Below are positions 13,000-18,280 of a stretch of DNA of 64,000 nt, piece by piece; the first letter of the stretch is position 1; each line of letters starts with the position of its first letter. Position numbers and translations under genes: made by a program. Under the pieces are notes generated by a model. It made no database searches and had not been told where the DNA came from. It saw nothing but the letters and a program-made list of their open reading frames with translations. This stretch comes from an uncultured Bacteroidaceae bacterium (GTDB taxonomy: Bacteria; CAIWAD01): the NCBI GenBank assembly GCA_964568855.1, contig CAZMSD010000001.1, forward strand, positions 75,197 to 139,196. The letters run 5' to 3'.

Positions 13000-15900
13000 T
13001 CAGGCCTCGGACTTCCGCGGGTCCGCTTTCCCGCCGAGTCCCCGGCCGATGATGGGCAAAGTCCGTTCCTTGTGGAAGGCGATGACGCGCTCCACTTCCT
13101 CCATCATGGCGACCTTCTTTTCGCCGGAGGCGCGGTAACGCATGTCCACGATCTCGGCACCGGCGATTCCTTCGCCGCCCAGGAATACGCCGCCCATCAC
13201 CAGCATGTGATCCGGGAGGGCGTCGATGCGGTTGGCCGCGGCCCAGGCCCGGCACCAGGCCCGTGAGGTGGCCTTGAGATCGTAGCCCCCACCGCCCAGC
13301 AGGAGCAGGTGCATGCTGTAGTTGCGCAGGTGCTTGAGGGCGCTTTCCATGCCGTTGTTGGTGAAGTGCAGGTTGGCCAGCGGGTCCGACTTGTGGGTAT
13401 CTGCGCCTATCACGGCCACCACCACGTAGGGAGCGAAGCGTGTCACGGCCGGGGTGATCACTTCATCGAAGACCTTCTCGAGGACTTCGTCGTCGCTTTC
13501 CTCGGGCAGCGGCAGATTGATCGTGAAGCCCTGGCCCATGTCCTCGCCGATCTCGGTCTCGAAACCGCTCCAGGGGTAGATAGTCTTGCCCGTCTGGTGC
13601 AGCGAGACGGTCAGCACGCGGTCGTCGCGGTAGTAGGCGTCCTGGACGCCGTTGCCGTGGTGGGCGTCGATGTCGATGTAGGCCACCCGGAAGCCCCGGG
13701 CGATAAACATGTCGATGGCCGCCACCGCGTCATTGACGTAGCAGAATCCCTCGGCGTGGGAACGGCTGGCGTGATGGAATCCGCCCAGGGGATTGAAGAC
13801 CACGTTGGCGTTGTCCTCGATGATCAGCTCGGCGGCGGTGATGGTGGCCGAAGAGTACAGCAGCACATAGTCGAAGAGGCTCCGGAAGACCGGGCAGTCC
13901 TCCACGCCTAGGTTGAACTGCAGGTACTCCTCTTTCCACTGCCCGTCGTTGGCCTCCTCGAGAGCGTCGATGAAGGCCGGGCTGTGCGACTCGATCAGGC
14001 GCTGCTTGGTGACCATCCGCGGCTCCTCCACGCGCATCCAGGGTTCATTGAGGTAGCCCTGCTGGTTGATCAGGTTCAGCGCGGCCCGCGCGCGGCCGGG
14101 ATCGAAGGGATGCTCGTCGCCGTATGAGAAGTCGCCGAAACGCCCCGAATAGACGATGATGCTGTCCTTGGGACGCATCACGTCCTCGGCGGGGAAGCAG
14201 ACGGTGAAGATCGTGGTGCCCGATTCGGAGAGCCGGGTGGCCGTGGGCCAGGCGCGGTTGAGCAGCGATATGGTGGGCGCGTTCTCGGGAATCACCTCGG
14301 CGTAGACGCCCGCAAGGCCCCGCGAGTAGGCGATCTTGCTCAGGTAGTTAGCCAGAGTGGTGCCGATACCCCGCTTCCAGTAGCTCTCGAGCACCACGAT
14401 GTCGAACTCGCCCATCTTGTTGGCCGGGTTGTACATGTAGCGCCCCTCGGCCACGATCTTCGGATTCCTCCAGGGACCCACCAGACCCACGATGGCCATG
14501 TCCCGGCTGTAATCGATGGCGGCCAGCTCCTGGGCCATCTCGTGGCTCAGGGCCTTGACCGTCCCGTGATACCTCATCCGGATCGTCTCCGGGGATAGGG
14601 AATAGAACATCCGCTGCAGGCGGTGCGCGTCGCAGGGGCGCACGGGGCGGTAGCGGATCTCGGTGCCGTCCTCGCAGGTCTGGGAGAATTCGTACTGGTG
14701 CGGATAGACGCAGCCGGTCTCGGGAGGTATGGGCTGCTCCGCGCTGACGTACTTGTGCTGCACGGCTTCCTCCAGCAGCTGCTGGCGGAACTTGGGGTGG
14801 GCGATGGAGATCAGAGTGATGGCCCGCTCGCGGATCGACAGGCCGTAGAGGTTGACGATGCCGTACTCCGTGACCACGTAGTCGATCTTGCCCCGGTCGA
14901 AAACCACGCCGCGGCCGAAACTGGCGCCCACGATGCGCGAGTGCTGACCGTCGGGCGTGGTGGAGGGCAGGGCCGTAATGGTGAAGCCGTTCCGGGAAGC
15001 CCGGGCGCCGTCGATGAAATCCATGCTGCTGGGCAGGCTGCTCTTCTGCAAAGCGTGCTCCGTCATCCCGCGGGCCATCCCCGTGAGTTCCATTTCCCGA
15101 ACAGAGTGGATCGCCACCATGCTGTCGTTCCGCGCGACGAGGCTCGGGTAGCCCACCTCGTCCACCGGCAGGAACTCGATGTAGGGATTACGGTCCAGGG
15201 CCTTGTACAATTCACGGGAACCCATGGCCATTGAGGCCACGGTCTTCCCCTTATGGACCTGCTTCTTCATGTTCGTCACGGCACCGGTGCGGATCAGGCG
15301 CAGGATGTCGTCCGTGAGGATGTCCGTGTGAATGCCCAGGTCCCGCCGGGTGTCCAGGTAGCGCATTGTGGCGGCGCTGATGGGGCCGCGGCCGAAGTGC
15401 AGCGTCATGCCGTCGGAGATCAGGCTGGCGATGTGCCGGCCTATGGTCAGCGACACGGGATCCAGCTCGGGCACGGGCACCTCGAGCAGCTCCGTGTTGC
15501 CCTCCACCAGGCAGTCGAGGCCCTCCACCGGCACCAGGGTGTCGCCGATGGTCACCGGCATGTGTTCGTTGACCTGGGCGATCACCAGGCCGGCGTTTTC
15601 CACGGCGGCCTTGGTGGCGTCGACGGCCACGCCCAGACTGCAGCGGCCGAATTCATCGGGCGGTGATACCTGCACCAGGGCGATGTCCACTTCCACGATA
15701 CCCTCGGCCATGGCCTTGGGCAGTTCGCTTACGCGCATGGGAGTGAAATCGGTCAGCAGGTCGGCGTCGGTCCCGGAACCGTGGCGACCGATGTAGAAGC
15801 TGTTGTAGCGGATGCTGTTCTTCAGCCCGCTGCCCGCCAGCCGGGATTCCTCGCGGGCGGTGGCCAGGTGGATCACCTCGATGTCGCGGAACCGGGAAGC

Positions 15901-16306: not shown

Positions 16307-18280
16307 CTAGGACCGGCGGCCGTCCACAAGCAAGGGCACCACGCTGGGATCGGCCAGGGTGGTAGTGTCGCCAAGCTCCGAAATGTCTCCGGCGGCGATC
16401 TTCTTCAGGATGCGCCGCATGATCTTGCCCGAGCGCGTCTTGGGCAGGACGTCCGTGAACTGGATGGCGTCCGGCGCCGCGATCGGTCCGATCTCGCCGC
16501 GGACGTGGTGGACGAGTTCCTTGCGCAATTCGTCCGTCGCCACGACCCCGGCGTTCAGCGTCACGAAAGCGTAGATGCCCTGGCCCTTGATCTCGTGCGG
16601 AAAACCGACCACGGCCGATTCGGCCACCGAGTCGTGGCTCACCAGCGCGCTCTCCACCTCGGCGGTGCCCATGCGGTGCCCCGAGACGTTGATCACGTCG
16701 TCCAGGCGCCCGATGACCCAGAAGTAGCCGTCCTCGTCCTTTCGGGAACCGTCACCGGTGTAGTAATAGCCGGTGAACTTGGAGAAATAGGTTTCGAAGA
16801 AACGGGCGTGGTCCCCGTAGATGGTGCGCATTATACCCGGCCAGGGGCGGTTGATGCAGAGATAGCCGCCTTCGTTGACGTCCACTTCCCGGCCTTCCTC
16901 GCCCAGGATCAGCGGGTTGACGCCGTAGAAGGGCCGCGTGGCCGATCCGGGCTTGATGGGCGTGGCGCCCGGCAACGGTGTGATCATAATTCCGCCGGTC
17001 TCGGTCTGCCACCAGGTATCGACAATCGGGCAGCGTTCTCCGCCGACCACCCTGTAGTACCACATCCAGGCTTCGGGATTGATGGGCTCGCCCACCGTGC
17101 CCAGGATCCGCAGGGAGGAAAGGTCGTGCTTCTTGACGTAGTCGTCGCCGCTGCGGGCCACGGCGCGGATGGCTGTAGGGGCGGTGTAGAACTGGTTTAC
17201 CTTGTACTTGGCGCAGACCTGCCAGAAGCGATCCGGACCCGGATAGGTGGGCACACCTTCGAACATCAGGGTCTGGGCGCCGGCAGACAGCGGGCCGTAG
17301 ACGATGTAGCTGTGGCCGGTGACCCAGCCGATGTCCGCCGTGCACCAGTAGACGTCGCCGTCGTGGTAGTCGAAGATCTTGCGGAAGGTCTCCGTGGCGT
17401 AGATGATGTAGCCCGCCGTGGTGTGCAGCACGCCCTTGGGCTTGCCGGTGGAACCGGAAGTGTAGAGAATGAACAGCGGGTCCTCTGCGTCCATGGGCTC
17501 GGGTTCGCATTCCACGGTGATGTTGGGCTTGGCCAGCTCCTCGTGGGCCCAGACGTCGCGGCCGGCCTTCATGGCCACTTCTTCACCGGTGCGCTTGTAG
17601 ACCACCACGGTCTCGATGCAGTCGCAGCCTTCCAGCGCGGCGTCGGCGATGTCCTTCAGCCCGAGGGTCTTGCCGGCGCGGAAGCCGCCGTCCGCGGTGA
17701 CGAGCATCTTGCAGGTGGAGTCCAGGATGCGGTCACGCAGCGAGTCGGCGGAGAAGCCGCCGAAGACCACCGAGTGGATCGCGCCGATGCGGGCACAGGC
17801 CAGCACGGTCACCGCCAGCTCGGCGATCATGGGCATGTAGATCGCCACCCGGTCGCCCTTGCCGATGCCGTTGGCCTTGAAGACATTGGCCAGGCGGCAG
17901 ACTTCCTGGTACAGTTGGCGGTAGGTGTAGGTCTTCGAGTCCTCATCCGGCTCGCCCTGCCAGACGATGGCCGGCTGGTCGCCCCGGTCCGCCAGGTGCC
18001 GGTCCAGGCACTGGACCGTGACGTTCATCACGCCGCCCTTGAACCAGCGGATGTAGAGGTCGTCGGGGTTGTCGCCGAACTTGTACTCGAGGACCTTGTC
18101 CCACTTCTTCATCCAGACAAAGTCTTCTGCGACCTTGCCCCAATACTCTTCGGGATGCTCAATCGAGAACTTCCAGTCTTCCTCGTGTTGATCGAGCGAC
18201 TTGATCCATGCCCGCTCGGTCACACCCTGCGGAGGATGGAATTTGCGGGTCTCGTCCATTACCGACTTGATTTCCGCCAT
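16307..18280 (-). CDS. acs: acetyl-CoA synthetase (AMP-forming)
   Basis: [26 protein letters not shown], and the C-terminal [11 protein letters not shown] block containing the conserved regulatory acetyl-lysine. Start MAEIKSV with AGGGAGG RBS. Confidence 0.9.

Follow-up and report, generated by a model that had tools for sequence, protein, structure and literature searches.

A CoA-transferase-like domain, a Pat-type acetyltransferase and an HDAC-type deacetylase fused in one protein encoded beside acs in an uncultured Bacteroidaceae bacterium

The tri-domain gene

The present analysis concerns a gene of an uncultured Bacteroidaceae bacterium, carried by contig CAZMSD010000001.1 and encoding a 1015-aa protein in which a coenzyme A (CoA)-transferase-like domain, a Pat-type GNAT lysine acetyltransferase and a class-I-like HDAC follow one another. 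All coordinates refer to the window, i.e. the whole 64,000-nt stretch of this contig that was analyzed. An earlier sequence-only reading of this DNA had proposed that three domains are concatenated in this protein and that its gene lies directly downstream of acs; Pfam, sequence matches to the PDB and Foldseek agree on the three folds, and the order and strand of the two genes were found to be as proposed. The tri-domain gene and its features are the following:

13000..16047, (-) strand: gene for the 1015-aa tri-domain protein, CoA-transferase-like + Pat-type GNAT + class-I-like HDAC (open reading frame (ORF) and translation, Pfam, JGI gene call, homologues, AlphaFold2)
14752..16035, (-) strand: family-I CoA-transferase fold of the 4-hydroxybutyrate-CoA-transferase/RipA subgroup with a remodelled active site, residues 5-432 (PDB phmmer, Foldseek)
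15322..15324, (-) strand: codon of Asp242, at the site of the catalytic nucleophile Glu (AbfT Glu238, RipA Glu249; alignment to 3gk7)
15025..15033, (-) strand: Pro339-Ser340-Ser341 in place of the GGQ of the GxGGQxDF motif (PDB alignment, family columns)
14182..14709, (-) strand: Pat-type GNAT lysine-acetyltransferase domain including the Pat-specific N-terminal extension (YPHQYE...RPVRPCD), residues 447-622 (PDB matches, Pfam, NCBIfam)
14407..14409, (-) strand: codon of Glu547, putative GNAT catalytic base, aligned to PatZ Glu809 (PatZ alignment)
13042..14172, (-) strand: class-I-like Zn-dependent lysine deacetylase (HDAC/AcuC-type) domain with a conserved C-terminal helical extension, residues 626-1002 (PF00850, PDB, Foldseek)
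13282..13776, (-) strand: HDAC catalytic set His758-His759, Asp792, Asp794, His796, Asp883 and Tyr922 (HDAC2 alignment)

The ORF has an ATG start codon with a ribosome-binding site (GGAGGAG) in front of it, and an identical protein is encoded by a JGI metagenome contig of 40.9 kb (sample 3300013118), where an independent gene call agrees on both its boundaries and its neighbours. Four Pfam families match the protein above their gathering scores: PF02550 (residues 11-184, 63 bits), PF13336 (276-428, 144 bits), PF00583 (525-596, 36 bits) and PF00850 (646-937, 262 bits). The sequence-only reading had expected all of them together with PF13302, whose match stays under its gathering score; the motifs that it had named were located at residues 557-565 (WKRGIGTTL), 792-802 (DIDAHHGNGVQ) and 918-922 (GGGGY). 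The AlphaFold2 model, built on 112 homologues, has a mean predicted local distance difference test score (pLDDT) of 87.9 and a predicted template-modelling score (pTM) of 0.87, and these scores suggest that the domains are arranged in a defined way. Since at least 120 homologue clusters (at the 90% identity level) carry the same co-linear architecture with 55-71% identity, the fusion is genuine, and its origin by an assembly or frameshift artefact is ruled out.

Active sites of the three domains

The C-terminal part of the protein (~390 residues) matches class I HDACs, with HDAC2 (7kbh) at an E-value of 1.5e-60, and the best 60 of 67 PDB matches of this domain are all HDAC1/2/3/8, Rpd3 or Clr6. 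Foldseek retrieved HDAC3 (4a69) with a target-normalised template-modelling score (TM) of 0.86, the HDAC matches ranging from 0.84 to 0.87, which identifies an arginase-deacetylase fold with class I as its best match. Its catalytic set aligns to the HH pair, the DxDxH motif, the Asp of GAD and the Tyr of GGGGY of HDAC2, and each of these catalytic or metal-binding residues is invariant or nearly so among 112-115 homologues. The HDAC-fold deacetylase announced by the sequence-only reading is therefore present with its complete set of catalytic and metal residues, and so are the GNAT and HDAC folds without which that reading would not have stood.

The best PDB matches of the central domain are E. 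coli PatZ (9it0, E-value 4e-11), S. lividans SlPatA (4nxy), M. tuberculosis MtPat (4ava) and Sulfolobus Pat (3f8k), i.e. its nearest solved relatives are Acs-acetylating Pat enzymes throughout. The alignment with PatZ starts in the Pat-specific segment that precedes the core (YPHQYE in the window vs YPHQLE), and PF00583 together with the PDB matches identifies a Pat-type GNAT fold with its pre-GNAT extension. The NCBIfam model of mycobacterial Pat also matches residues 458-604 (E-value 4e-15), with 55 bits vs a cut-off of 460. The catalytic glutamate of Pat (PatZ/SePat Glu809, MsPat Glu234/235) corresponds to Glu547, and this position is occupied by Glu in 102 and by Asp in 13 of 115 homologues. 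In the acetyl-CoA-binding motif A (Q/R-x-x-G-x-G/A), the window protein has Gly560 and Gly562 and carries Trp557 at the first position, which is Arg (n = 66) or Gln (n = 44) in the family; Gly560 is found in 114 of the 115 homologues, and all of them have either Gly (n = 97) or Ala (n = 18) at position 562. Pfam did not match any of the families of the NDP-forming acyl-CoA-synthetase-like domain (PF13380, PF13607, PF13549) in the tri-domain protein.

It could be argued that only one of these two catalytic domains is enzymatic in vivo, the other serving for substrate docking or as an acetyl-lysine reader, which would make the protein a one-way enzyme. The atypical motif A of the window copy (Trp557-Lys558) could be taken in this sense, as could the risk of a futile cycle that fused antagonists run if they are not tightly controlled. 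However, both catalytic sets are conserved in at least 112 homologues and the relatives described below keep both as separate, apparently intact genes; we consider a one-way enzyme quite improbable.

As regards the N-terminal domain (~430 residues), a phmmer search of the PDB gave 4-hydroxybutyrate CoA-transferase (3eh7) at an E-value of 2e-92 and also matched RipA of Yersinia, and Foldseek retrieved 3eh7 with a target-normalised TM of 0.93. Together with PF02550 and PF13336, these matches identify the two-domain alpha/beta fold of family-I CoA-transferases. PMC3180442 defines family I by two features, one of them being the active-site glutamate that forms a glutamyl-CoA thioester. The tri-domain protein lacks this glutamate: in the alignment to C. 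aminobutyricum AbfT (3gk7), GIHSE(238)M of AbfT corresponds to GIHTD(242)I of the window. Among the 115 full-length fused homologues, 104 have Asp and seven have Glu at position 242. The GxGGQxDF loop is not conserved either, since the window reads LPSSMDF where 5/5 aligned PDB homologues have GGQ; in the family columns, the Gln of GGQ is absent from this position throughout the 115 fused homologues.

The comparison with unfused proteins that associate a CoA-transferase-like domain and a GNAT (CoAT-GNAT) gives the same picture: the nucleophile is Glu in 24/26 unfused proteins vs Asp in 22/29 fused ones, and GGQ is kept in 21/26 unfused vs 0/29 fused proteins. Furthermore, the fused clade has switched 26 positions at which the unfused relatives are conserved. 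These positions are concentrated between residues 314 and 346, in the vicinity of the active site, and the replaced residues include Asn314, Gln324 and several conserved Arg. Fused and unfused forms alike retain Glu394 of the VVTEYG motif and 48 further positions of the core, and the fused domain is ~60% identical across its own clade. These conservation patterns indicate a domain that was probably remodelled and maintained under strong conservation, not one that is decaying. Since the CoAT domains of the distant split relatives keep Glu and GGQ, the loss of the transferase signature appears to accompany the fusion to the deacetylase. A conserved pseudo-transferase specific to the fused clade would be a new point. 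The sequence-only reading had seen a CoA-transferase-type binding module in this domain: the fold is real, and the loss of Glu and GGQ fits a domain that would bind a ligand better than it fits an enzyme.

Alternatively, the N-terminal domain could be an active acyl-CoA (acetyl-CoA) hydrolase produced by a natural Glu-to-Asp change; hydrolysis of acetyl-CoA would then be added to the two other activities of the protein, for instance to limit the acetyl-CoA available locally to the GNAT or to release CoA. Asp242 is strongly conserved (104/115) instead of drifting and could support acyl-CoA hydrolase chemistry; PMC12400318 mentions, with reference to Mack and Buckel 1997, that other family-I enzymes lose transferase activity and gain hydrolase activity when their Glu is mutated to Asp. 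The conservation of Glu394 and of the 48 core positions would also suit an enzyme. However, in the engineered hydrolases only the nucleophile was altered, whereas here GGQ, Asn314, Gln324 and several conserved Arg are replaced too. Furthermore, position 242 is not Asp in 11/115 fused homologues (Glu in seven of them and neither residue in the others), and P0248, a protein resulting from an independent fusion, has Gly at the nucleophile position. We therefore regard hydrolase activity as unlikely.

Relatives and genomic linkage to acetyl-CoA enzymes

When homologues of the fused protein have a name at all, it is 'GNAT family N-acetyltransferase' or a JGI composite COG label. A locus scan restricted to one genome per species retrieved 33 single-ORF fusion loci, from metagenome-assembled genomes (MAGs) labelled as Myxococcota/Deltaproteobacteria, Latescibacteria, Planctomycetota, Nitrospirales, Fibrobacterota, Aminicenantes and Thermoplasmata archaea. 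The members of the fused family retrieved by the cluster and genome searches did not include any cultured organism. All three domains are ~60-67% identical across this family, and in a clustering at 50% identity the whole fused clade is one representative among 1.84 billion. Full-text literature searches, whose coverage falls short of all journals and which could therefore have missed an earlier description, found none of this fusion; such fusions are mentioned neither in PMC11532494, which surveys the classical deacylases of bacteria, nor in the papers on AcuA/AcuB/AcuC. The genome paper of Geobacter metallireducens was a false lead. The architecture, which the sequence-only reading had called unusual, is accordingly one for which we found no published description, but it is widespread in uncultured bacteria and archaea and cannot be called rare.

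More distant relatives (~40% identity) were found in ~25 further species, where a CoAT-GNAT protein (~620 aa) and an HDAC are encoded by adjacent genes that often overlap and that occur in both orders. A search with the CoAT-GNAT protein of one of these loci (L041) collected 8000 candidates, all at an E-value of 1e-20 or less, plain CoA-transferases possibly being included; two-domain proteins make up nearly all of the best 120 matches. CoAT-GNAT proteins thus seem, from these matches, to be a very large group in their own right. In L007:11556-13763 (-) and L008:11126-13051 (-), from Myxococcales/Myxococcota MAGs, a canonical CoAT-GNAT paralogue with Glu and GGQ is located just downstream of the fused gene, on the opposite strand and convergent with it, so that the remodelled and the canonical versions of the domain are here found side by side.

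Other architectures were also detected: (i) P0248 (955 aa, 34% identity), the independent CoAT-GNAT-HDAC fusion mentioned above, whose HDAC is class-II-like (GFCIFNH, DWDVHHGNG, EGGY); (ii) P0376 (591 aa), a GNAT-HDAC fusion without CoAT found in a cluster of 103 members from Syntrophales (MGA2331447.1, Syntrophales MAG), which is a second, independent fusion of a writer and an eraser; (iii) an HDAC with an N-terminal response-regulator receiver domain (REC-HDAC), which follows the CoAT-GNAT gene in Anaerolineae/Chloroflexota (L048:9844-11349 (+), L040, L043, L046, L047, L050 and L056) and suggests an eraser under phosphorylation control, P0265 being a REC-HDAC too and P0335 a REC-CoAT; (iv) P0241 (967 aa) and P0243 (960 aa), in which CoAT-GNAT is associated with an N-terminal region of ~340 aa containing 4Fe-4S dicluster motifs and which may be a redox-sensing variant. 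The existence of split-gene relatives and of independent fusions shows the three modules to belong together and to be evolutionarily coupled; the alternative architectures also support a varied sensory input. Some candidates were rejected: the N-terminal addition of P0241 and P0243 had been considered as an HDAC, which the 4Fe-4S domain found there rules out; an 'HDAC-CoAT-GNAT permuted fusion' retrieved by tblastn is in fact two adjacent genes; and P0305 (965 aa) was dropped as an extra architecture, its C-terminal 400 aa being low-complexity, Arg/Pro-rich and frameshift-like.

In the window, the genes and features surrounding the tri-domain gene are the following:

18450..19748, (-) strand: MFS monocarboxylate transporter (SfMCT-like), first gene of a putative operon (NF049980, PF07690)
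16307..18280, (-) strand: acs, AMP-forming acetyl-CoA synthetase of 657 aa, probable substrate (NF001208, 1025 bits; TIGR02188, 988 bits)
16424-16426, (-) strand: codon of the regulatory Lys619 of Acs (PKTRSGK, PX4GK context)
16166..16193, (-) strand: 12-bp GC-rich hairpin without U tract, in the 259-nt spacer between acs and the fused gene (RNAfold, -26.5 kcal/mol)
11786-12916, (-) strand: asnA, followed by a strong terminator-like hairpin

The order on the (-) strand is thus MFS, acs, the 259-nt spacer, the tri-domain gene, an 83-nt spacer, asnA and the terminator-like hairpin. The retention of the regulatory lysine by Acs, already noticed in the sequence-only reading, is borne out by Lys619 in PKTRSGK. 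That reading had also called the transporter 'OFA-type': it is indeed an MFS protein, but it stays under the cut-off of the oxalate/formate antiporter (OFA) family model, so that OFA membership is only rough, and it fits better with the SfMCT L-lactate transporter model (NF049980, 328 bits vs a cut-off of 320). The 83-nt spacer between the tri-domain gene and asnA holds a good sigma-70-like match, and the terminator scan did not call the hairpin of the 259-nt spacer; the numbers of promoters and terminators in the window are no higher than the shuffled expectation, and of these predictions only the strong terminator following asnA was used as evidence on the operon. At gathering thresholds, Rfam detected nothing in the spacers of the putative operon; its sole matches in the window are three tandem tRNA genes located far off, at 58.2-58.5 kb (58178-58487 (-)).

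Some other observations concern the rest of the window. A separate GNAT of 266 aa (PF12746, GNAT_acetyltran) is encoded at 8220-9020 (+), 4 kb from the fused gene. ORFs without Pfam match are found at 20044-22569 (+) (841 aa), 6217-8223 (+) (668 aa) and 9362-10675 (+) (437 aa); the last one overlaps an opposite-strand beta-helix/NosD-like ORF (9230-11608 (-)), and JGI calls a slightly shorter gene there. The G+C content of positions 26000-44000 is 0.69-0.72, compared with ~0.63 in the surroundings of the locus, and falls to 0.63 only in a block at 36-38 kb. This stretch, which includes a distant homologue of AMP-binding enzymes (26890-27795 (-), 26% identity to Acs), may be a biosynthetic cluster.

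Linkage to genes of acetyl-CoA enzymes was counted within the stored flanks, roughly 10 kb per locus:

Split-module loci (n = 25): AMP-forming acs 8, ADP-forming Acs 5, ATP-citrate lyase 1, any of them 14
Fused-gene loci (n = 33, the window coming in addition): acs 2 (L007, L008), ADP-forming Acs 0, ATP-citrate lyase 6, any of them 8
Stand-alone HDAC loci of the same subfamily (n = 22): acs 5, ADP-forming Acs 0, ATP-citrate lyase 0, any of them 5

By our own estimate, a genome of a few Mb with one or two acs would have acs in the ~10-kb flank of ~1% of random loci. In L007 and L008, only ~20-35 nt separate the end of acs from the fused gene downstream of it, an arrangement similar to that of the window, and the PKTRSGK motif is kept in every Acs linked to the module. 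The MFS-acs pair recurs beside the module or its HDAC in L041, L054, L068, L079 and L080; in the three stand-alone HDAC loci among them (L068, L079 and L080), the MFS gene adjoins acs. Genes encoding ATP-citrate lyase subunits are located a few kb from the module in L020, L021, L029, L013, L022, L027 and L051, and the fused gene of L021 lies beside the genes of a monomeric isocitrate dehydrogenase, ATP-citrate lyase and aconitase, which hints at a tie to the reductive tricarboxylic acid (TCA) cycle or to citrate cleavage. Overall, these neighbourhoods argue strongly for a module-wide link to acetyl-CoA metabolism.

Since fused genes adjoin acs in 2/33 loci and ATP-citrate lyase in 6/33, Acs may be one target among several. 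The Acs-directed rheostat proposed in the sequence-only reading is a largely reasonable hypothesis but was too narrowly tied to Acs. A broader view would make the protein a general acetylation regulator of central carbon metabolism, acting on other PX4GK acyl-CoA synthetases, ATP-citrate lyase and TCA enzymes, the adjacency of acs being one lineage-specific arrangement. It would account for ATP-citrate lyase being a commoner neighbour than acs at fused loci, for the isocitrate dehydrogenase, ATP-citrate lyase and aconitase cluster of L021 and for the split modules that adjoin ADP-forming Acs as well, and PMC12184503 describes PatZ as modifying diverse substrates. However, the best-established substrates of Pat-family GNATs are AMP-forming acyl-CoA synthetases, the spacing is operon-like wherever acs adjoins (L007, L008, L041), and stand-alone HDACs of the same subfamily adjoin MFS-acs pairs. 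We consider a general regulator rather unlikely.

The same neighbourhoods bear on the idea that the GNAT and HDAC domains act on a small molecule (an acetylated polyamine, an amino acid or another amine), with the CoAT-like domain belonging to that pathway. Most fused loci have no obvious protein-substrate gene nearby, the HDAC superfamily includes acetylpolyamine amidohydrolases (PMC11532494) and many GNATs are small-molecule acetyltransferases. Nevertheless, the nearest solved relatives of the GNAT are exclusively Pat protein acetyltransferases, with which it has the Pat-specific extension in common, the best 60 of the 67 HDAC matches in the PDB are class-I protein deacetylases and not polyamine deacetylases, and the linkage to acs genes encoding the target lysine is recurrent. 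A small-molecule substrate is in our view very improbable.

Finally, a protein of 445 aa with four tandem AMP-binding_C domains and no adenylation core is encoded ~2.4 kb downstream of the tri-domain gene in a Thermoplasmata-labelled MAG (L010:6061-7398 (+)). AMP-binding_C is the C-terminal domain of Acs that carries the acetylated lysine; in this protein, only the last repeat has kept a Lys, which has LPRTETRK as its sequence context. A role as substrate mimic, decoy or adaptor for the acetyltransferase/deacetylase is conceivable.

Proposed mechanism and known systems

From the architecture of the protein, the integrity of its catalytic residues, the degeneration of its CoA-transferase site and the coupling of the modules, we infer a function, a substrate, a sensed ligand and a reciprocal control. 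The reading that we favour, at slightly better than even chances, is that of a bifunctional writer and eraser of lysine acetylation, whose N-terminal pseudo-transferase would be a sensor or a scaffold and whose likely target in the window would be Acs. The Pat-family GNAT would move the acetyl group from acetyl-CoA onto a target lysine, and the class-I-like Zn hydrolase (AcuC/HDAC type) would take it off again. The N-terminal domain, having lost CoA transfer, would bind a CoA-related or carboxylate ligand and/or drive oligomerisation and would thereby set the balance between writer and eraser. In the window, the most likely substrate would be Lys619 of the Acs encoded upstream, acetylation being the off state and deacetylation the on state. 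Acetate activation, fed by the upstream monocarboxylate transporter, would thus be tied to the acetyl-CoA state. Some control would be needed because an uncontrolled GNAT and HDAC would together amount to an acetyl-CoA hydrolase acting via Acs, and their coordination would avoid this futile, acetyl-CoA-hydrolysing cycle.

Several observations weigh against this reading. The absence of drift at Asp242 and the hydrolase activity of Glu-to-Asp mutants, discussed above, fit an N-terminal enzyme. The window copy also deviates from its family at two places, with Trp557-Lys558 in motif A where the family has Arg/Gln-Gly and with Gly at position 219 where the family has Asp. As regards the locus, a 259-nt spacer with a strong hairpin lies between acs and the fused gene (vs ~20-35 nt in L007 and L008), co-transcription being plausible. 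Lastly, 25/33 fused loci have no gene of an acetyl-CoA enzyme in their stored flanks, and adjacency to acs is found in a minority of them.

A bolder proposal is a reciprocal switch, in which the CoAT-fold domain would read the acetyl-CoA/CoA (or acyl-CoA/carboxylate) state and allosterically turn the GNAT on while turning the HDAC off and vice versa; this would be the first switch of its kind, with Acs and perhaps further acetyl-CoA enzymes as its targets, in the manner of AceK and GlnE. AceK (isocitrate dehydrogenase kinase/phosphatase) and GlnE (glutamine synthetase adenylyltransferase/adenylyl-removing enzyme) hold opposing activities on one metabolic enzyme in one chain, with a balance set by metabolites. 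Their folds and chemistry are unrelated to those of the tri-domain protein, and we know of no AceK/GlnE-type converter for lysine acetylation. We put forward such a switch only tentatively and consider it rather unlikely. The unfused relatives with an intact transferase site might sense through a covalent Glu-CoA intermediate.

The GNAT domain of the tri-domain protein has its nearest relatives in Pat/PatZ (type I) and SlPatA (type II), with which it has the N-terminal extension and the catalytic Glu in common and whose classic substrate is Acs with its PX4GK lysine. The N-terminal domain of Pat/PatZ is catalytically inactive, binds acetyl-CoA, regulates the GNAT and is needed for activity (PMC8556138). 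However, the regulatory domain of Pat, PatZ and SlPatA is NDP-forming acyl-CoA-synthetase-like, whereas the putative regulatory domain has a family-I CoA-transferase fold here, and Pat is paired with a separate sirtuin, CobB, whereas a Zn deacetylase is fused C-terminally here. The type III Pat enzymes (mycobacterial cyclic nucleotide monophosphate (cNMP)-GNAT, actinobacterial ACT-GNAT and Myxococcus NADP-GNAT) also have an N-terminal domain fused to a Pat-like GNAT; theirs binds a ligand and the enzyme acetylates Acs. The putative sensor of the tri-domain protein has a different fold and is much larger (~430 aa), and the protein has a deacetylase domain in addition. The tri-domain architecture is absent from the published types I-V of bacterial protein GNATs (PMC8556138).

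The organization also recalls AcuA, AcuB and AcuC of B. subtilis, whose genes are next to acsA, where a GNAT writer and a Zn HDAC-type eraser are found beside acs and act via one lysine of Acs. There, an extra module, AcuB, tunes the deacetylase; AcuB has been reported as a regulator of AcuC, and the coordination of AcuA and AcuC is named as an open problem (PMC13121692). In the tri-domain protein, the CoA-transferase-like domain is in the putative sensor role, and no CBS/ACT AcuB is found. Unlike the Acu system, writer and eraser are in one polypeptide, and the GNAT is Pat-like, with no AcuA chain among its PDB matches. The gene arrangement differs too: instead of separate acuA, acuB and acuC divergent from acsA, a single fused gene is co-directional with acs and located downstream of it, with no gene for a CBS/ACT protein between them.

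As regards the N-terminal domain, AbfT, RipA of Yersinia and butyryl-CoA:acetate CoA-transferases resemble it in fold (target-normalised TM 0.88-0.93, 32-38% identity), in VVTEYG and in many core residues. It differs from family-I CoA-transferases by Glu->Asp, GGQ->PSS and switches at ~25 other positions, by its fusion to a GNAT and an HDAC, and by its score of 180 bits vs a cut-off of 675 for the NCBIfam equivalog. On these sequence comparisons, the tri-domain protein is akin to Pat/PatZ by the ancestry of its GNAT and to AcuABC by its logic, and is a member of neither. Besides the pseudo-transferase of the fused clade, its split-gene and alternative-fusion relatives and its wide spread in uncultured bacteria and archaea appear to be new points.

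Reversible acetylation of Acs is the model case of bacterial metabolic regulation by acetylation. In the family described here, which is found in many uncultured bacteria and in archaeal MAGs, a single chain unites writer and eraser with a domain that probably binds a metabolite. The family would add a new domain architecture to the type I-V classification of bacterial protein acetyltransferases and would provide a case in which a CoA-transferase fold has been recruited as a pseudo-enzyme. Furthermore, it offers a natural comparison series, made of split genes with an intact CoAT site, fused genes with a remodelled site, GNAT-HDAC alone and REC-HDAC, which makes the coordination of antagonistic acetylation enzymes directly approachable experimentally.

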